Shown here: piece after piece, positions 23,996-34,432 of the stretch | Layout: each line of letters opens with the position of its first letter | How positions within the stretch are numbered: the stretch's first letter is position 1 | Origin: Craspedostauros australis | Taxonomy: Eukaryota | Length of the DNA stretch: 64,000 nt | Assembly: GCA_030167865.1 (NCBI GenBank) | Contig: JALAGF010005473.1 | Span: 1 to 64,000, forward strand | Direction: 5' to 3' | Made by a program: the position numbers and the translations under genes | The notes under the pieces: generated by a model | What the model was told of the DNA's origin: nothing | The model's input: only the letters and a program-made list of their open reading frames with translations | Database searches by the model: none

Positions 23996-26098
23996 CTACA
24001 GATACGTCGATGTATCTCGCAGCAAGGCCCGGCGCCTATTCTTGGCTTCGCGCGCCGCGGCCTTGGCCTTATCCTTCTTGTGCTGCTTCGGTGTCTTCTT
24101 TGGGCTGGACGACCGTGGCTTGCGATTCAAGTCCGGCGGCGGGATCACCGGATTGGGCTTCGTCCCATTCGTCACGAAGTACTGCACGAATTGTTCGGGT
24201 ATGTCCTTCAATCCGTCCGCCACCACCTCGCTGGCGTTGCCGGCAAATCGTTTGAAGCTCACAAAGTGGACGATGTCACGAGCGATCGGGACGTTGCGAG
24301 AATCCCGCATGGGACCCTTCTCGTTGGTGCAGGCGCGTTCGATCGCGGAAAAGTCGCGGTTGCCCACGCCGATGATAACGATGGACAGCGGGGCGTCCTC
24401 CGCAGCGGCGCAAATGAGATCGATGGATTCCTGGAGGTCCGTGATGCTGCCGGTGGTGAAGACGCACAGTATGGTGTAGCTCTGCCGGTTCTTGCACGAT
24501 CGGATGGCACGGAACGTGGTGGCCTCGATCAGCGGCTTCAGCCGGACGCCGGTTTCGCCCAATGCGAACTTCTTGTTCTTCGCGATGCTGCTGTCGTACG
24601 TCTGGAGCATCTCGCGGGCTTCGACGAGGCGATCGGCCATCATGAAGACGTCCTGGTCTTCGCCGTCGACCTTGCCTCCGAATCCCCACATCGAGGAATG
24701 GCGCCCGCGTGCGAAGTTCTCCATGATGGAGCCGAACTTCTGGATGCCGGCTTGGTAGTCATTCAGCCAATGGCTCGCGCTGTGGTGCAGGCCTTGTACG
24801 CCCGTGCCGTTGTTGATGCTGCAATCGATGCCGATCATGAGGTCGAGGGAGCAACCGCCGCTGAGATGCTCAAGCATGGATGGGATGGTGAGGACGTTGG
24901 CCTTGAGGACCTTCATGAGGCCCACCGGCTTGGGTTTGGAACCACCGAACCACTTCCTCCGCTCGCGCATGACCTGAAAGACCGGGATGCCATCGATCTT
25001 GGCCTTGGCCTTTTCGACGAGCTCGTTGACTGTGGACTCTACGTATCCCATGTGATCGTGCTGTGTGGAATGCTTCTCGTAATCCCAAATCGTGACCTTG
25101 ACGGGATCGCGGCGAAACCCATTGCACAGCAGCTGCAACGGCAACCGCGCCACCTTCCATGTGGGGCTCAGCGAATCCTTGACGACCTCCGACTTCCACA
25201 CCACTTCCCAGCTCTGATCATCCTTGCGCAGCTTCTCCACCTGGAAGTACGGATTGGACTTGTCCAGCACTTTCGATTGGTCGAGCAGACTCTGTTGCTT
25301 GATCAAGTCCTGACATGAGAACCTGAATTCCAGCACTTCTCTCGTGTCCACGATCTCTGCATTCATCCGTTGGTTGGTGTCGGTGTCGGAGGCATGAAAG
25401 GAGGAAAAGTGGAGAAGTTGGGCAAGACAAGCAAGGCAAGGCAAGACGGGCAAGGTGGGCAACGAGGAAGAGGGAGAATGATGGCGGTGGTCAGTATGGG
25501 CAACGCGCGCGAGTTGGAATGAAACAGAGGAGGATACTCTACCAATACGAGTGGAGGGCACTGTTATGCCTCGAGCAGTGGTACCACAACGAGTACACGC
25601 GGTGGTATGGTACGCACCATCTCCCGTGATGACGAGGAAGGACTTATCCCGACCCAACCGCTTGAGGATCGTGCGTCCCTTGGCTCCCAGCAGCTGCCCC
25701 AGCGTGAAGATGCACCCTCCGAGGTAGTGGTGCTCGTTGAGGTCCGTGATCATGTTGAGATCTTCGCTGTACACGCGCAGGATGTAGGTCTGCTCTTCGT
25801 TGAACGTGAAGTCGAGCGGGAACTTGGTCTTGAAGGTCGGATTGGCGACGCCGTTCTGCGTCTCCGTCCGGTTGATCTCATCCTCCTGGCGGCCGGGCAG
25901 GTTGGATGGCATGCCCTTGATCATCGGCGGGGTGTAGCCATTGGGGACCCTCCACAGCACGCAGAAGGCATCGGCCTGGCTGAGCAGGTCCTTCTTGGGG
26001 AGGCGTTTGCATTGGATGACGAGCTCGACCTTGATGATCGGCGCAGTCAGCCGCGATGGCCACGCGAATTTGGAGAAGTCCTTTGACTTGTACTTCAT
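23996..26098 (-). CDS. Copine (C2-C2-vWA). Exons 26098-25618 and 25356-23996, with an in-frame 261-nt intron
   Basis: C2A (CKRLPKKDLLSQADAFCVL...NPTFKTKF), C2B (DKSNPYF...WKSEVVKDSLSPTW) and vWA (MIGIDCS...WGFGG...APLSIVIIGVGNRDF...ARDIVHFVSF). Intron G|GTGCGT...TGCAG|AG. Confidence 0.92.
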   Translation of the reverse strand: MKYKSKDFSKFAWPSRLTAPIIKVELVIQCKRLPKKDLLSQADAFCVLWRVPNGYTPPMIKGMPSNLPGRQEDEINRTETQNGVANPTFKTKFPLDFTFNEEQTYILRVYSEDLNMITDLNEHHYLGGCIFTLGQLLGAKGRTILKRLGRDKSFLVITGDGAYHTTACTRCGTTARGITVPSTRIGRVSSSVSFQLARVAHTDHRHHSPSSSLPTLPVLPCLACLAQLLHFSSFHASDTDTNQRMNAEIVDTREVLEFRFSCQDLIKQQSLLDQSKVLDKSNPYFQVEKLRKDDQSWEVVWKSEVVKDSLSPTWKVARLPLQLLCNGFRRDPVKVTIWDYEKHSTQHDHMGYVESTVNELVEKAKAKIDGIPVFQVMRERRKWFGGSKPKPVGLMKVLKANVLTIPSMLEHLSGGCSLDLMIGIDCSINNGTGVQGLHHSASHWLNDYQAGIQKFGSIMENFARGRHSSMWGFGGKVDGEDQDVFMMADRLVEAREMLQTYDSSIAKNKKFALGETGVRLKPLIEATTFRAIRSCKNRQSYTILCVFTTGSITDLQESIDLICAAAEDAPLSIVIIGVGNRDFSAIERACTNEKGPMRDSRNVPIARDIVHFVSFKRFAGNASEVVADGLKDIPEQFVQYFVTNGTKPNPVIPPPDLNRKPRSSSPKKTPKQHKKDKAKAAAREAKNRRRALLRDTSTYL

Positions 26099-26347
26099 CT
26101 CAACCCTTTGCTCCTTTTGTTCCTATTGGCCTTGCTATTGGAGGTGCTATTAGGGTTGCCGCCACTTCGCTTGCTCTCCTGGTCTCCTGATTGTTGCCGG
26201 TCACGGTCATTCCGATGATTCCTCCAAAACTCCGTCCGCCATTGTCGATGTTGCCGTTGTCGTACTCAGCCGGGGTTACCAGCGTGTTGTGGTGCGTTTC
26301 GCTGTTGGTGTGCGTTTTGCGCCATCTTCCCAGAATTTATTCGTGTC

Positions 26348-26481
26348 TGTTGGCATACGGTCGCAGACAGACGGTGCAGCAGCACACACCCATGGTCACA
26401 GCCTCTGCCAGATCGGAGATAATCACAATAATCACATCATCACACACACAACACATCACGTATCGTCTCCCGATCATCACA
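26348..26481 (+). repeat. 5' LTR (134 bp)
   Basis: TGTTGGCATACGG...GATCATCACA, identical by eye to 32284-32417. Confidence 0.97.
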
Positions 26482-26490
26482 GGTTATGAG
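26482..26490 (+). promoter_or_regulatory. Primer-binding site GGTTATGAG (half-tRNA-iMet type)
   Basis: Abuts the 5' LTR and lacks the TGG of CCA-end priming. Complementary to the CUCAUAACC anticodon arm of initiator tRNA-Met, as in Ty5/copia (hemivirus-type) priming. Confidence 0.75.
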
Positions 26491-26615
26491 GAAATAAGCT
26501 TTAAGGCTCATCCTGCTACTCTGTACCCTCTGCTGTTGTTGGAAATCCACATCCGCGCAGCTCCTTTTTTCCACTACTTCCTCGCTCTCTTTTCCGTATC
26601 CATTCTTCGCACATC

Positions 26616-28286
26616 ATGCCCGCCAAAACCTACAACCTCGATTCTGAGGAACTCAAAGGTCTCGCGTCTCTCTTCGCGCGCCTCAACTGGCATTGGGCTG
26701 GCCACTTCGTCACCGGCGCCAACCTTCAAGACACGCTGGACCTCTGGGACTTCCTCGAGCTCGACGATGCGCTGTTCGACGCCTTCTTCGCGAACTGGCC
26801 CAAGAACTCGGTTACGCGCGAATTCGGACTCCGCCAACTCCGGCGCTACTACCAGGACCACCCCGACGTTGCGTCTTGGGTTGATGTTCTCAGTCGTGAC
26901 GACCTGCGCAAGTACAAGCGTGATGGCAAGCCGGCCGCCGTGCCTCCACCGAAGGTGCCCCCAGCCGCGCCTACCGCTGATACTGCCGACGTCGTCGCTG
27001 ATGCGCCGCTACCTGGTCACTACAGCCCTTCTGACGCTGCTGCTGGTGCCACGACTGCGCCGCCTCCGGACCCCGTGCTTGGCACTGAGGAACACCCGCT
27101 CGATATCCCAGACGCGGGCCGTGAGCCGCTGCCAGGTGATTCTACAGACTACATCACTGGGTCTGGTCTTCCCTATGCTGCCGCCAATGGCAACCCGTCC
27201 ACGCTCGCGCACTTCTCCTACAAGGCTGTGCTCTCTCCTATCGAGCCTGACAGGGATGCTACTGGGTACTGGCAGCGCTGGGTGGCCAAGCTCGTGGTGG
27301 ACCAGCCTGCCGATGTGCTCAAGTGGTACACCCAGTTTCAGGGTGAGGCTGATTGTGTCAACATTGCACTCGTGCCATTGTCCCACTTCAACGCCCGGTG
27401 CTCGCTCATCCCCAAGAATGCCACTCGCGCCATCGTCATGCGCTCTGGTGTGCAACTCAATCGCAAGCTTCAGGAGGACGGCATCCTCAACCTCTCCGAT
27501 CCGTCTGTCAAGATGTATCACACGGCGTGCTTTGGCGTGGTGCCCCATCGCCTGTCTGGGTACATGCTCTTGCACCAGGTGCTCCATGATGCCTTCCAGC
27601 GCATCGAGCGCACTGTCAGCCAGGCTCCTGCCTACTCTGACTTCCGTGACGTCGTGCTCTACGCGGACGCTCTCCTTGCGTACCAGCAGACTGAGACCGT
27701 CGTGCACAAGCGCACCTTCACGGACGTTGAAATGACGCGTCGATTCCTGGAAGACCTTCGCGCCAGTGGCCTGGACGTTGGGCACTTGGTCACTTCGCTG
27801 GAGCTTCTGCCGCAAGGTAAGCGAGTGCTGCCCCATCTCCATGTGTCAGCACTGGCCAGGACCATCCACTCTGATCCCACCGTGCCTACTCGCCCCACTG
27901 GGCACCGTGCCCAAACCCGTTCGTCCACTCGACAAGGTGCAGGTGGCGGTTTCCGTGGTGAACGCCAGCGATCGGCGTTTTACCAACCTGACAAGGACGC
28001 TTTTTGCACGGCTTGCCGGCGTGGAGGACACAAGGCTGAGTCCTGTCTCAATTGGGCAAGACACCTTGCATTTGCCGAGCTCCGTGAGTCTGAGCCAGCC
28101 CTGGCGTCCACGGTCCTTGCGAAATTCAAGGAGACCTACACCAAGGACAAGTCTCGAGCCCTCGCCAGAGCACTTCGGCTGACTCACGCCGACCTTGGCA
28201 ATGACGACAACCTCGACGATGGCGCCGTTGTTGCGCACGTTGAGGACCTGCTGCTGCAGGATTTTGTGCTTGCTGGCCAGGACTAA
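26616..28286 (+). CDS. gag: Retrotransposon Gag, 556 aa
   Basis: First ORF after the PBS, with a CCHC zinc knuckle (CTACRRGGHKAESC) near the C-terminus. Confidence 0.9.
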   Translation: MPAKTYNLDSEELKGLASLFARLNWHWAGHFVTGANLQDTLDLWDFLELDDALFDAFFANWPKNSVTREFGLRQLRRYYQDHPDVASWVDVLSRDDLRKYKRDGKPAAVPPPKVPPAAPTADTADVVADAPLPGHYSPSDAAAGATTAPPPDPVLGTEEHPLDIPDAGREPLPGDSTDYITGSGLPYAAANGNPSTLAHFSYKAVLSPIEPDRDATGYWQRWVAKLVVDQPADVLKWYTQFQGEADCVNIALVPLSHFNARCSLIPKNATRAIVMRSGVQLNRKLQEDGILNLSDPSVKMYHTACFGVVPHRLSGYMLLHQVLHDAFQRIERTVSQAPAYSDFRDVVLYADALLAYQQTETVVHKRTFTDVEMTRRFLEDLRASGLDVGHLVTSLELLPQGKRVLPHLHVSALARTIHSDPTVPTRPTGHRAQTRSSTRQGAGGGFRGERQRSAFYQPDKDAFCTACRRGGHKAESCLNWARHLAFAELRESEPALASTVLAKFKETYTKDKSRALARALRLTHADLGNDDNLDDGAVVAHVEDLLLQDFVLAGQD

Positions 28287-31200
28287 AACTGTGTCCTGGT
28301 GAGCAGCTCAAAAACGTTTCCCGTGCATGCGAGACACCTGTAGGCGCTCCATATGGAGAGGTGTCTTCGCTTACCACAGCCTACGCGCACCAGCCTCCTT
28401 CCAAGCTGGTGCCATTTGTGGCCTGTGCTGACATGACGCTGTTCGCAGCATCTACTCGGCAGGTATCACAACGTGCGTGGCGCCAACAAGACCATGGGCA
28501 GTGTGACCCTGGTGCCAATGTCTGTGCCACGCCGCACATCGACATGCTTCGCGCCTATGAAGTCTTTGCGCAGCCCATCCTTCTTGAGGCTGCCAATGCT
28601 TCGGCCCCTACTATGGAGTGTCCTGGCGCCGGCGTCATGCAATTGCATGGTACTCAGGACCGCAGCGTCTCTGTACGTATGCTCCACTGTCCACACTTGG
28701 CTGACACGCTTGTTTCACCACAGGCTATCGTTGGGCAATCCGACAACGACTTCCAAGGTTTCTTCGTGCACTCCGCACCCCATGGAGCGCGAGTAGTCTT
28801 CACGTCCAGCACTGGTGAAGTCGAGGTTCCCCTTGTGGTGCGCAATGGCCTGTACTACTTCCAAGGTCCATCTCAGTGCGTGTTTTCCATCCGCAAGGCA
28901 TCTGCCACACTCGTGTCGGAGCTCTGGCATCTCCGCCTTGGCCACGTTGGCATGAGTCAGCTTCCCTTGCTTTCCAAGTGCGCTACGGGTATACCGCCTG
29001 AGGCCATCGCTGCAGTGCACCCACTACGGCACTGTGATGCGTGCAGCCAGGCTGGATACCAACATGCGGCCCGAGGTCCCAATGATACTCAGACAGCCAA
29101 CGTCCCTGGCGCAAGGTTCCATGTCGACTTTGGGTTCATGCGTGCGTCCAATGCGCAGTATGGGCTGAAGGGCAAGAGTCCGCGTGACTCGCGTGTGGTA
29201 CGATCTGTGGATGGATACTGCGCATACCTTCTTGTGGTGGATGCGTACACGGCGTACGTCTGGGTCTTCATGACCAAGGACAAGTCTCCACCCATCGTGG
29301 CTGTCCGGCAGGTGCTCACGTCGTTTGGCAGGTCCAGTGGATACAGGGCAGTCCGTGTTGATTTGGGTGGCGAACTGGCGCGCTCCGATCAATTCCGTGC
29401 CATGGTGATGGAGTGTGGTTACACAGTTGAGCCCACCGGAGCCGACTGCGCCTGGATGAACGGCAAGGTCGAGCGCCTTAACCGCACATTTGGCACCATG
29501 GTGCGGGCGCTCTTGTACTCTGCCGGCATGCAACCACATTTCTGGTCCAAGGCGCTTGCACACGCCGTCTACCTGAAGAACCGGCTGTACCACTCGGGCA
29601 TCCGCACCACTCCGTACGAGAGGCAGCATGGCGTCCAACCTGATCTCTCTCACTTGCGAGTGTTTGGGTCTCGCGTTACAGTCAAGAAGCCTGGGAAGGC
29701 TGCTGCCAAGCTCGACGTGCACACCTACGATGGCATCTTCGTTGGGCACACCGCCACACAGGCACTGCATGAGTACTTTGATCTCCGCACTGGCCGGTTC
29801 AAGCGCGCTGGGAACATTGTGTTCGACGAGGCACACTTCTCATCGACTCATCGGCCGCCTGGGCCGCAGCTGCTCTTTGATCTGGGATTTAAGCAGCCAG
29901 TTGCGGTTGAGTGCGATGCCGCCCGTGTGGGGACTGCTTCATATCCTCGCCTTGGGAAGAAGGCTTCTGCCACACCACCACTCGCGTGCCGAGTGCCGCT
30001 CCCTCTTGGAGATCTGCTTGATCGTGCCATCCAGCATGCGTCCGCTGCGGCCTGCTCCACCACCGATGCCACCCATACTGTGGATATTGACATGGCTGAT
30101 GATCCATTTGGGTACAGCTTCGACCAGACTGTCGCAATCGCTGGGACCGACGTCACTTTGGGCTTCGACTTTCGGTACGACGCGCGAAGAGATCGCCTCG
30201 TGCTCATCATGTGCCGGCCTGGGCAGCCTTCTGCACGGATACCAAGGTGGAGATCGCGTCTTCGGCACTCTCACCTGCAGACTGTTCATGGCCACGATGT
30301 GCACAACCTGGATCAGCTCAAGGCGTGCATCCGCAAGCTGCGCGACGACAACATCACGTCTGCTGTGTTCACCTTCGCGTTTGACGACGTCCGCAACGCG
30401 CTCTCCCAGACTGGTGTCCCGCAGATGTACTTTGATCAACTTCGCAATGTGAGGGACATCATCGGGTCCATCAGTCCAGTCGCACGTGCCACCAGCGTCA
30501 CTAATGCGCCTGTGAAGCTCACTCGACGGAAGCTTCTACAGCAGGACGACTGGCCTGAGTGGAGTGCAGCTGAGTACAAACAATTGGATCAGTATGATGC
30601 GCAACGGATGTTTGGAGAGCCCGTCGTGCCCCCTGAAGGAGCAGCTGTGTTCAACTGGGTTTGGGTCTATGTGGTAAAAACCCATGAAAATAATCGCAAG
30701 AAGGCTCGCGCCGTGTGCGACGGATCCACTCGAGGCGGTCATGCTCGCGTCTTTGGCCACACCTATGCCGCCACGCCCGACCTGACGGAGTTGCGCATTC
30801 TTCTTGCCATTGCGGCGGTTCAAGGACTCAAAGTCTATGGCTCTGACGTCACCAATGCATTTGCGGAAGCCCCAGCTGGCGAACAACGGTACTACATGCG
30901 TGTTGACGAGCAGTATCGCGCCTGGTGGGAAACGCGACGTGGTCAGCACATGCCCAGTGGCGCTGTCATCCCAGTTCTCAAGAACTTGCAAGGTCACCCC
31001 GAGGCACCCAGGTTGTGGAGTCTTCATGTCAACGGACTACTTCGTGCGATGGACTTTCAGGCCACTACCCACGCGCCATGTCTCTACACTGGGAGCATTC
31101 GAGGGTCCAAGGTGTACGTCCTGCGACAAGTGGATGACTTCGCGGTTGCGGCCACCTCCGAGGGTGTTTTTGACACATTCTGCGATCGCCTGGACAAAAG

Positions 31201-32251
31201 TCTGTTCCAGCCCATGACCAGGCAAGGCCTGATGGTACATTACAATGGGCTGGATGTCGATCAAACCCAGGACTTCATCAAGGTCCATTGCACTTCGTAT
31301 GTCAACAAGATGCTAGAGCGTCATGAGTGGCAAAACTTCAAGACTACGCAGCGGCTACCCATGCGATCGGACAACTCCTACGTCAAAAGTCTGGACAACG
31401 CGGTGCTTCCAGCGACTGATGCCGAACGCGCGAGTGTGGCGAGTCAGTTTACCTTCCGGTATCGACAAGCAATCGGTGAGCTTATCTGGGCAATGATCTC
31501 GTGCAGACCTGACATCTCTTTCCCGGTTGTGAAGCTCTCACAATTCTCTGCCAATCCTGCTGCACTTCATTTTGAGGGCGTCAAGTATCTCATGCGATAT
31601 GTTGCCGGTACTCGTGATCACGGTGTCACATATTGGAGGGTGCAGCCTCTCGTGGATATGCCTCAGGCGCCCCGTCCCGCTCGGCTCTCGCCTGCTGACG
31701 ACGATGTACATGATGCTACTGGCATTCAACACCTCGACGCGTCAACGCTGTACGGCTACACTGATGCTGACTGGGGGGTTGACATTCGACATCGCCGGTC
31801 CGTCACTGGGATCATCTATCTCTTTGGAGGCGCTGCAGTGGCTTGGAAAACTCGTGTGCAGCCTACCGTGTCCATGAGCAGCACTGAGGCAGAATTCGTC
31901 GCTGCTAGCGATGCTGGCCGCATGGCCCTTTGGCTTCGTTCCATTCTTGATGAGGTTGGCGTGAAACAGCAGTACGCGACCATGATATTCGAGGACAACC
32001 GCGGCGCGCGGCTGATGGCTTCTGCCAGTCAGCCTACCCGGAACTCGCGTCACATCGCGATCCGAGAGTTCGCAGTCCTTGATTGGGTTGAGCGGGATCT
32101 GCTCACCTACCCAGAGGTCGCCTCTGACCTAAACGCATCCGACATTTGCACGAAACAGACGCCTGTGGCCCTGTACTTCTGGCATATCGACCTAGTGATG
32201 GGTCGTCTTGTGCCATTCTATGTACGCGGCCGCGGCAACCCGGATTTGTAA
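28244..32251 (+). CDS. pol: Retrotransposon Pol (protease, integrase, PDZ-like insert, reverse transcriptase, RNase H), probably expressed as a Gag-Pol frameshift product
   Basis: PR: CDPGAN. IN: LWHLRLGH...CDAC, HVDFG...RVDLGGE...NGKVERLNRT. RT: KKARAVCDG...RQVDDF. RH: GYTDADWG...STEAEFVA...FEDN. Open from 28244 with no stops. Confidence 0.95.
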   Translation, partial: GPAAAGFCACWPGLKLCPGEQLKNVSRACETPVGAPYGEVSSLTTAYAHQPPSKLVPFVACADMTLFAASTRQVSQRAWRQQDHGQCDPGANVCATPHIDMLRAYEVFAQPILLEAANASAPTMECPGAGVMQLHGTQDRSVSVRMLHCPHLADTLVSPQAIVGQSDNDFQGFFVHSAPHGARVVFTSSTGEVEVPLVVRNGLYYFQGPSQCVFSIRKASATLVSELWHLRLGHVGMSQLPLLSKCATGIPPEAIAAVHPLRHCDACSQAGYQHAARGPNDTQTANVPGARFHVDFGFMRASNAQYGLKGKSPRDSRVVRSVDGYCAYLLVVDAYTAYVWVFMTKDKSPPIVAVRQVLTSFGRSSGYRAVRVDLGGELARSDQFRAMVMECGYTVEPTGADCAWMNGKVERLNRTFGTMVRALLYSAGMQPHFWSKALAHAVYLKNRLYHSGIRTTPYERQHGVQPDLSHLRVFGSRVTVKKPGKAAAKLDVHTYDGIFVGHTATQALHEYFDLRTGRFKRAGNIVFDEAHFSSTHRPPGPQLLFDLGFKQPVAVECDAARVGTASYPRLGKKASATPPLACRVPLPLGDLLDRAIQHASAAACSTTDATHTVDIDMADDPFGYSFDQTVAIAGTDVTLGFDFRYDARRDRLVLIMCRPGQPSARIPRWRSRLRHSHLQTVHGHDVHNLDQLKACIRKLRDDNITSAVFTFAFDDVRNALSQTGVPQMYFDQLRNVRDIIGSISPVARATSVTNAPVKLTRRKLLQQDDWPEWSAAEYKQLDQYDAQRMFGEPVVPPEGAAVFNWVWVYVVKTHENNRKKARAVCDGSTRGGHARVFGHTYAATPDLTELRILLAIAAVQGLKVYGSDVTNAFAEAPAGEQRYYMRVDEQYRAWWETRRGQHMPSGAVIPVLKNLQGHPEAPRLWSLHVNGLLRAMDFQATTHAPCLYTGSIRGSKVYVLRQVDDFAVAATSEGVFDTFCDRLDKSLFQPMTRQGLMVHYNGLDVDQTQDFIKVHCTSYVNKMLERHEWQNFKTTQRLPMRSDNSYVKSLDNAVLPATDAERASVASQFTFRYRQAIGELIWAMISCRPDISFPVVKLSQFSANPAALHFEGVKYLMRYVAGTRDHGVTYWRVQPLVDMPQAPRPARLSPADDDVHDATGIQHLDASTLYGYTDADWGVDIRHRRSVTGIIYLFGGAAVAWKTRVQPTVSMSSTEAEFVAASDAGRMALWLRSILDEVGVKQQYATMIFEDNRGARLMASASQPTRNSRHIAIREFAVLDWVERDLLTYPEVASDLNASDICTKQTPVALYFWHIDLVMGRLVPFYVRGRGNPDL
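28259..28306 (+). promoter_or_regulatory. Predicted -1 programmed ribosomal frameshift signal (slippery G_GAT_TTT plus 3' stem-loop)
   Basis: The pol frame (-1) opens after TGA 28241 and overlaps the end of gag. The heptamer at 28259-28265 is in gag phase. After a 5-nt spacer comes the hairpin TGCTGGCCAGGAC-taaaactgt-GTCCTGGTGAGCA. Confidence 0.8.
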
Positions 32252-32270
32252 CTTTTCCGCTGGCTACGCC

Positions 32271-32283
32271 AGCGTGGGGGGGG
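32271..32283 (+). promoter_or_regulatory. Polypurine tract
   Basis: AGCGTGGGGGGGG immediately precedes the 3' LTR. Confidence 0.85.
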
Positions 32284-32417
32284 TGTTGGCATACGGTCGC
32301 AGACAGACGGTGCAGCAGCACACACCCATGGTCACAGCCTCTGCCAGATCGGAGATAATCACAATAATCACATCATCACACACACAACACATCACGTATC
32401 GTCTCCCGATCATCACA
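32284..32417 (+). repeat. 3' LTR (134 bp)
   Basis: Identical to the 5' LTR and followed by the TSD GTGTC. Confidence 0.97.
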
Positions 32418-34432
32418 GTGTCTCCAGATTGCGCTTTCTCCCTTTCGACATCAGTCGTGGACTATCCACGTTTGCGGAGTGTGTCTCATGAATGTCGCAT
32501 GGGTGCGAGCATTATTGACCAATTCGACTCGTTTGTTAACGTCCAAGACCAATGCGACGCACGCCACGACCAGCCATGGTTGCTCACATTTTGATCGAGG
32601 GCTGCTTCACCAAGAACATCCCCAAGGCGCAAACAACCGCAAACGCAGACACACAGGAGCCGGAACTTCGTCATGTGGTCAACAAGTGACGGTCGGTGAT
32701 GACGATGATGACCATCATGATCATGATGGCGACGGTGTTGCATGTTCTTCGCGTTCTCTTTCGCAACGTGAACTGTGAGAAAAGACCAGAACAGGGATGT
32801 GACGCTAATCGTGCAAAGCGATCGTGTGGTCGGAAACGGCCACAACCATTGCACTTGCAGCTGACGCGATGTCCTTGTTGTAGGATGCATTGTACCGTAC
32901 ATACCAACACGCTGCATGTCATAATACCTACACGCATACAACAAAATGCGTCATGGGCTTCGCAATGAGAGTGGATCGGAACGCTAAATTGCTCATAGTA
33001 CCTCTGAAAACTCCGGCGTAATTGTTCGCAGCAGCAAAATGTCTCGTGCGTAAGTCGGCGCTTTCGATTTCAGGGACAGACAAGAGATGCGAGCAGATGA
33101 TCACACGAAGTGACGCATGACAAGACCACCTCCTCCTTTCTACCCGCGCCATGTTTCGCCGATACCCGGGTGCACATTCTCTACAGCTCAAGATGACGCA
33201 CTTTGGTTGCAACCTGGCGCGGAGCGGTTTGGTCGACACCACGGCGCGATTTTGTTCACTCACGTACCCCCGAGGGCCTCCGCCTTGCCCACCAGACATC
33301 ACACATCTTCCGGTGCCAACAACGACGGTAGTCGTATCCGTACCGTGATGACATACCCATCATCCTCACTCACCGACCCGAAGAAGGCTCGTCGCCTTCC
33401 TTCTTCGATTCTACCTCCTTCCTTCGCTTTCCGGCGTTTCGCTGCCACACAAGCCACTCGCCCAGCAAAGAAGACAACGTTCCCATCTTCCTTCCGCTCA
33501 CGGCGCAGTCGCACGTGGGAATTCGTCAGTGGCATTCCCTCCTTCTTGTTTGATCTTGTTCGACATACTAATACAGGGAACGACATACGCACAACAGCCA
33601 AGGCTGCGTTCTCTCGCCACATCCATCATCATCACAAGTATGTCAGTTTGCATGTTCGTGTTTGTGTGCCTACGTTTCTGCGCTCAGGATCAGTCCTCGC
33701 ATGGACGACCACGTCGGCAACGAAGGCCATGTCCATCGCGCGATCGTCAACACTCGCTGCCATGCTACGAAGCGCAGAGTGCTTGTAGCAGTGGCAGGTG
33801 GCACAGGCAACAACAACGACCAGCATGACGACAGTGTGTGATGTGACGCATGTTACCAATACTTCCTCGTAGTACTAACAGCAGAAATGACAACAGAGAG
33901 AGTGTCTGACGATGCTCGTGGTTGCATCATGGAAACATCATGTGCAATTTCCATCGACCTGCAACAGCCCCCACCATGATGTGTGTAGCATCGAGTATCT
34001 CTCGCAAACCTTCGCACTCTTGATGTGGACACAGTGTACCATACTCTCGTTGCTATGTCTGGTACAAGTGTGGCACCATTCGTACAGTCAGACCTCATAA
34101 TCTTTAAAGCATCAGACAGCTCTCATAGTCGTACCATTCGTATCCGACTATCCCTCCAACAACAACAACGACGACAACAATCACACACACCCTCAGACAA
34201 GCGCGCGCAAGCACAAACGAGCATACAGTCGCAGCAGCACAGCACAGCATACGTCGTCGTCGTCCGTATACTCAAACATTCAAACGCACATACACACATA
34301 TTCGCATACTCGCGGAAACACATAGAGTAGAGTAGAACAATACGCTCTGTCACCCCTCGACTCCGTCTTTGTACGCACTCAAGCTCAGCTTCAGACTCGA
34401 AACAACACATTGCCACTCTCGTTTTGACATCG

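Follow-up and report, generated by a model that had tools for sequence, protein, structure and literature searches.

The contig JALAGF010005473.1 of the Craspedostauros australis assembly GCA_030167865.1 contains a complete Ty1/copia retrotransposon, and the junction between its gag and pol genes is very probably a recoding signal, at which a conserved −1 programmed ribosomal frameshift would generate both Gag and Gag-Pol. We analyzed the first 64,000 nucleotides (nt) of the forward strand (the window), in which the element occupies positions 26348–32418 of the + strand with both of its open reading frames (ORFs) uninterrupted; all the features described below are on this strand unless stated. 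A first-pass annotation of the window, made from the sequence alone, had proposed a split gag and pol joined by a −1 frameshift cassette. The comparison with related elements for which it had called bears this out, in that the slippery heptamer is conserved at the nucleotide level and the hairpin that follows it covaries. Frameshifting between gag and pol is a textbook feature of retroviruses and occurs commonly among gypsy elements, but it is unusual for Ty1/copia. While −1 gag-pol frameshifting is known, what appears to be new here is a well-supported conserved signal of this type in a diatom-type copia clade.

The gag ORF runs from the ATG at 26616 to a TAA stop codon at 28284–28286 and encodes 556 amino acids (aa); its frame is already open from 26505. 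The pol ORF (28244–32251, 1335 codons) lies in frame −1 with respect to gag. The two overlap by 43 nt (28244–28286), in good agreement with the split frames, the pol opening at 28244 and the overlap of about 40 nt that had been read initially. Within the overlap there is a slippery heptamer G_GAT_TTT (28259–28265), which is in phase with the gag frame just as the first-pass annotation had it, so that GAU would be placed in the P site of the ribosome and UUU in the A site. Only 12 in-phase heptamer positions fit into the overlap, and by our own arithmetic the chance of finding GGATTTT there is ~7e-4. Pol is read from the heptamer onward, and the first codon belonging to pol alone is TGT at 28265. 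The gag stop is located 18 nt 3′ of the heptamer, inside the loop of a hairpin.

The hairpin is separated from the heptamer by a 6-nt spacer (28266–28271; columns 8–13 of the alignment A3 described below). It is a bulged structure of 12 bp (28272–28307), supported both by folding and by covariation in five sequences. The outer helix comprises 4 bp (28272–28275 with 28304–28307) and the inner helix 8 bp (28276–28283 with 28293–28300), with 3 nt bulged out of the 3′ strand (28301–28303) and a loop (28284–28292) that contains the gag stop. A stem with the stop codon in its loop had been recognized previously, with arms placed at 28271–28283 and 28293–28305; these are correct to within a base or two, and the spacer is 6 nt in length. 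The 60 nt 3′ of the heptamer fold with an energy of −25.9 kcal/mol, compared with a mean of −13.2 kcal/mol for shuffled sequences (z = −4.98), and none of 200 shuffles was as good.

How general is this arrangement? Metagenome contigs were scanned with the pol alignment, giving 79 loci, of which 34 include the N-terminus of pol. Four of the 34 (L001, L002, L037 and L071) have a −1 junction, 22 have an in-frame TGA, five are cut by the end of the contig and three are ambiguous or decayed. GGATTTT is found in phase exactly at the junction in all four −1 loci. The pol frame of the −1 junction elements opens 1–12 codons 5′ of the heptamer. In L001, L002 and L037 gag terminates either 1 or 5 codons 3′ of the heptamer. 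L071 is different in this respect (L071:143-485); its gag frame remains open for 113 codons past the heptamer, with CAT TTT in place of the CAG TAA of L037, and this locus may represent either a variant or a copy in decay. The heptamer has the codon context NNG GAT TTT in five out of five elements, with a different preceding residue (Q, P, S, P and A, respectively). Calculated from the codon usage of each element, the joint chance of NNG GAT TTT in all five is 1.5e-7, a figure that assumes independence of the elements, and this holds only approximately.

Alignment A3 consists of five sequences, those of the window and of the four relatives, anchored on the heptamer. The layout is common to all five elements, comprising the 6-nt spacer, the 4-bp outer helix, the 8-bp inner helix, a loop of 4–9 nt and the 3-nt bulge. 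The inner helix opens with a G-U pair in four of the five, and with A-U in L002. The bulge has the sequence GAG, GAA, GAA, GAA and ACA. Standard base pairs are present in 52 of 54 cells of the alignment (96.3%), and both sides have changed in 7 of the 12 pairs; neither value was reached in any of 500 shuffles. When the pairing partner was slid by 1–3 columns as a control, only 20–50% were paired. At least one of the compensatory changes is synonymous in gag (GGC/GGU) and alters the amino acid in pol (Gly/Asp). For L001, L037 and L071 the comparative structure is also the fold of lowest energy. The strength of the hairpin varies; it is high in the window and L037, whereas L001 and L071 have a modest structure. 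Ranked by folding among stretches of its own element, the 48 nt 3′ of the heptamer stand at 0.16% in the window and at 5.5, 2.0, 0.47 and 14.7% in the relatives. A search of Rfam with positions 28100–28500 gave no match at E values up to 1. A covariance model built from the cassette (R1) was run over the window and the 79 loci, a total of 418,544 bases. Only the five training sites scored, and the next best match had 16.8 bits with E = 0.53.

The gag proteins point in the same direction. An exhaustive HMMER search gave 28 cluster representatives homologous to the gag protein, whereas word-index searches using either the single protein or the gag alignment A1 gave no match above threshold. All 28 are ≤685 aa in length, so none is fused to pol. 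In 17 of them (~20–40% identity to the query) Asp-Phe (DF) followed by 0–7 residues forms the C-terminus. The 11 without a DF tail are mostly fragments that end short of the gag C-terminus; P0151, a homologue without the tail, belongs to the TGA group of relatives discussed below. Viral contigs searched with the pol alignment gave no match. A 15-base pattern gave at least 120 matches in the viral contigs, yet none of 120 loci encodes gag or pol, and these we discard as chance.

That ribosomes shift at the heptamer, and with what efficiency, we infer from these sequences, and the following mechanism seems to fit them best. The majority of ribosomes would terminate at the UAA at 28284–28286, releasing Gag of 556 aa. 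A minority would be held up by the 12-bp bulged hairpin lying 6 nt downstream, at the entrance for mRNA into the ribosome, while the P site is occupied by tRNA-Asp on GAU and the A site by tRNA-Phe on UUU. Both tRNAs could then slip by one base in the 5′ direction, and re-pair on GGA and UUU. Translation would continue in the pol frame to give a Gag-Pol protein of 1878 aa (550 + 1328), and the slippage would set the ratio of Gag to Gag-Pol, as in retroviruses. The transframe peptide predicted for such tandem slippage is ...LLQDF-CACWPGLK. This agrees with the CACWPG continuation in one of the two versions suggested at first; the other, in which LLQDF is followed by LCACWPG, has no basis in the sequence.

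A number of observations weigh against this interpretation. The re-pairing in the P site from GAU to GGA is weak, and the efficiency may be low. The energy of the hairpin is unremarkable in L001 and L071 (z = −0.19 and −0.15, percentiles of 5.5 and 14.7%). In the window the minimum-energy fold has another register of the outer helix, at −21.5 compared with −17.5 kcal/mol for the comparative structure. The hairpin arms also encode semi-conserved peptides (in the gag frame AGQ or AGH, in the pol frame (D)ER-L or EQL), so part of the conservation may be at the level of protein; (D/N)ERL is found near the N-termini of the further pol relatives P0006 and P0012, and a weaker DESL in P0013. Lastly, DNA is available for four relatives only, the DF tails of the other gag proteins being proxies at the protein level, and the counts overlap. 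P0133 is the gag of L037 itself, and there are close matches of P0132 (98%) and P0141 (86%, over its final 28 residues) to the gag regions in L001 and L071.

Could pol be expressed in another way? In Drosophila copia the gag:pol ratio is controlled by splicing, and removal of a short intron might similarly join the two frames here, making the heptamer and hairpin incidental. We consider this improbable. It leaves unexplained both the retention of NNG GAT TTT at synonymous positions and the covarying hairpin 6 nt downstream. There is no GT between the heptamer and the gag stop of L001 (GGATTTTATCTAA), and therefore no positionally conserved splice donor. In addition, the ORF called for the transcriptome-derived relative P0003 (MMETSP) has 1245 aa and comprises pol only. 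There is also a slight chance that Pol is translated alone, by internal initiation, by reinitiation or from a subgenomic RNA, with no fusion protein made. An AUG is available in the pol frame of the window, 58 codons past the heptamer and 5′ of the protease motif. However, the distance of the first AUG from the heptamer varies between the elements (22, 32, 58, 111 and 112 codons), and in L002 it lies 112 codons past the heptamer, beyond a protease-like DDGAN motif, so that a Pol initiated there would be without that motif. Separate translation would account neither for the pol frame opening immediately 5′ of the heptamer in five out of five elements, nor for the conservation of the heptamer and hairpin.

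The first-pass annotation had itself raised the concern that the frame change might be a private indel. If this were a single-nucleotide change in a dead copy, or an error of assembly, the heptamer would be there by chance, and the window provides no second copy of the element for comparison. Yet the −1 arrangement and the heptamer recur in four divergent relatives (L001, L002, L037 and L071), none of the 28 gag homologues is fused to pol, and the terminal repeats are identical with the ORFs intact; such an origin is very improbable. We would give hardly more credence to slippage of RNA polymerase, whereby some transcripts would be one base shorter. There is a run of four T at the site, but this is far shorter than the runs known to cause such slippage. 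The process would also have no need of three conserved features, namely the G_GA prefix, the spacer and the hairpin. Programmed −1 frameshifting by the ribosome remains our favored explanation.

The features typical of −1 frameshift signals are present at the junction: an overlapping −1 ORF, an in-phase heptamer, a structure at a distance of 6 nt (where 5–9 is typical) and conservation with compensatory changes. The conserved pairing of the loop that would mark an H-type pseudoknot is absent. A pseudoknot between AAAC in the loop and GTTT at 28316–28319 had been suggested, and the bases are indeed there. But the pairing comprises 4 bp and is not conserved, and when the 40 nt downstream were shuffled it was equaled in 857–864 of 1000 cases; we reject it. 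In L071 the loop sequence CCATCCC (169–175, approximate) is complementary to GGGATGG (205–211), ~14 nt past the hairpin, giving 7 bp. This match was equaled by 50–51 of 1000 shuffles, and L071 is the only element with a longer match; a pseudoknot is possible in that relative only. The second stem that had been noted also exists, as an inverted repeat GAGACACCT/AGGTGTCTT (28331–28367, with arms 28331–28339 and 28359–28367). The proposal that it forms part of the signal is not supported; it lies at the 6.9th percentile within its own element, it is not conserved and there is nothing similar in L037.

The closest parallel to the slip site is viral. In the umbravirus PEMV2, the same G_GAU_UUU is a working −1 slip site that was tested by mutation, according to the available text of PMC4737148, and the description of our site as virus-like is therefore apt. 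From the same text, the run of U is essential in PEMV2 and re-pairing in the P site is of moderate weight; a stop codon 3 nt downstream of the heptamer assists shifting (PMC4737148 and the available text of PMC5009743). The two systems share an identical non-canonical heptamer and a bulged hairpin just downstream, and L001 and L002 resemble PEMV2, so far as that text describes it, in having a zero-frame stop 3 nt past the heptamer. They differ in that the RNA here is the mRNA of a long terminal repeat (LTR) retrotransposon and would give Gag-Pol, while the product in PEMV2 is an RNA-dependent RNA polymerase. Moreover, the stop of the window element comes 18 nt past the heptamer, in the loop, and the hairpin is small (12 bp) with no match in Rfam. 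Recoding elements of the umbravirus and dianthovirus type have a large hairpin, the bulge of which pairs with the 3′ end of the RNA.

There are likenesses among retroelements too. Retroviruses and Ty3/gypsy elements (e.g. HIV-1, with U_UUU_UUA and a hairpin) also have a −1 pol overlapping the end of gag, a heptamer, a spacer and a 3′ structure. In contrast, the window element belongs to Ty1/copia and its heptamer is not a strict X_XXY_YYZ. Ty1 is a member of the Ty1/copia branch that expresses pol by ribosomal frameshifting, but in the opposite direction and by another mechanism; the shift is +1, takes place on a site of 7 nt and depends on a codon that is decoded slowly. A single ORF is reportedly usual in Ty1/copia elements. 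A review puts pol in the −1 frame in 28 of 51 animal LTR elements (PMC5009743). The CoDi elements of diatoms, as described in the accessible portion of Maumus et al. 2009, are Ty1/copia elements with short LTRs of 153–844 nt, TG/CA ends and separate ORF1 and ORF2. The window element is similar in its short LTRs, TG/CA ends, split ORFs and matches to diatoms (Thalassiosira and Cyclotella); its LTR of 135 nt is below the range given there. The first-pass annotation had guessed that a precedent might exist among the CoDi elements. This was half right, for the ORFs are separate but no slip site or structure is described in that portion of Maumus et al. 2009. In the literature that we searched no slip site or cassette of this kind was named for diatom copia elements, and no experimentally tested recoding signal was found in diatoms.

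A second group of relatives has a quite different junction. In 25 more distant elements (L004, L005, L007–L016, L028, L031, L034, L038–L040, L043, L048, L050, L054, L055, L064 and L065) gag and pol are in one frame with a single TGA between them. The boundary stop is always TGA, which occurs nowhere else in the two long frames. The base that follows is C in 24 of the 25 loci (CGG in 12, CTA in 4). The TGA is usually preceded by GAA, and inverted repeats rich in G+C come after it. In RNA viruses of plants and animals, UGA-CGG and UGA-CUA are known as contexts for readthrough. It is the TGA group that resembles these viral examples, and not the window element. From its sequences the group looks like a case of programmed UGA readthrough, which would be the sister strategy of frameshifting.

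The frame upstream of pol in the TGA group is open for 1087–1222 codons and matches no Pfam family (L039:2-3670, L011:2-3415, L034:62-3664 and L015:299-3562). Likeness to gag is confined to the last ~300 codons in L039 and L034; L015 has a weak gag match of ~80 residues, and L011 has none. This frame is either an unusually large ORF1 or contains an undescribed N-terminal part.

A tree was constructed from the first 520 residues of pol, using the five frameshift elements and 24 TGA elements (L040 was omitted, as it has the same junction as L039). A branch with SH-aLRT 95 separates the five frameshift elements from the 24 TGA elements. The frameshift relatives have no more than 41% identity to the window pol, with path lengths of ~2.4–2.7 changes per site. 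With paths of this length, the signal is old. We consider it likely that a deep copia clade of diatom type has kept the virus-like −1 cassette of G_GAU_UUU and bulged hairpin while its nearest clades use UGA-C readthrough at the corresponding gag-pol boundary, in which case the lineage would have switched its mechanism of recoding. A similar division exists in the Tombusviridae, where some genera frameshift on the G_GAU_UUU heptamer and others use readthrough.

The cassette is short and conserved, and natural compensatory variants exist, making it a ready object with which to test −1 frameshifting in diatom translation. It can also serve as a marker for the correct annotation of Gag-Pol, since gene callers now split these into two unrelated proteins. 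With the TGA-C sister clades, two means of setting the ratio of Gag to Gag-Pol can be compared as they occur in nature.

The remainder of the element is consistent with a copia retrotransposon, as proposed initially, and with one of diatom type. It is bounded by LTRs of 135 nt with TG...CA ends (26348–26482 and 32284–32418) that are 100% identical, and flanked by a target-site duplication GTGTC (26343–26347 and 32419–32423). A polypurine tract of eight G (32276–32283) lies directly 5′ of the 3′ LTR. The gag ORF (26616–28286) has no match to any Pfam family. It includes a zinc knuckle CX2CX4HX4C (28005–28046), in which C464, C467, H472 and C477 do not vary across alignment A1. The pol ORF encodes protease, integrase, reverse transcriptase and RNase H, and its Pfam matches occur in the order gag_pre-integrs (residues 202–270), SH3_retrovirus (462–532) and RVT_2 (801–1034). 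Integrase thus precedes a reverse transcriptase of RVT_2 type, which is the order in Ty1/copia elements, the Pseudoviridae. The closest protein matches to pol have 44–53% identity and include one MMETSP transcript. The named genomic matches are from Thalassiosira and Cyclotella, with 36–46% identity, and it is these matches only that suggest a placement with CoDi. The identical LTRs, the 5-bp target duplication and the uninterrupted ORFs give the element a functional appearance, making a decayed copy unlikely; it is structurally intact, and was probably inserted recently. No further copies were found in the window using blastn and tblastn.

Some details of pol are less usual. The protease motif CDPGA at residue 87 has DPGA rather than D(S/T)GA. 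The Pfam integrase core (rve) gives no match to the window pol (P0002) or its close relatives, and matches the plant-type copia hits. D295, D373 and E410 are nevertheless invariant, and could constitute the D,D(35)E triad.

The 5′ LTR is adjoined by a sequence resembling a primer-binding site, GGTTATGAGG (26483–26492). The sequence GGTTATGAG(G/C) immediately follows the window element's 5′ LTR and is found shortly 5′ of ORF1 in L034:83 and L043:459, and in L064:5551 it is located after a pol. Probably GGTTATGAG is the complement of the anticodon loop in initiator tRNA-Met, and if that is right these elements would use an internal tRNA primer in the style of copia. No tRNA genes were found in the window. 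The surrounding ORFs are those of ordinary eukaryotic genes, including a copine with C2 domains, an Obg GTPase, ankyrin repeats and glycosyltransferases. The element is inserted ~226 nt past the upstream end of the copine/C2-domain ORF (23996–26122, − strand), and may therefore occupy the promoter region of that gene.

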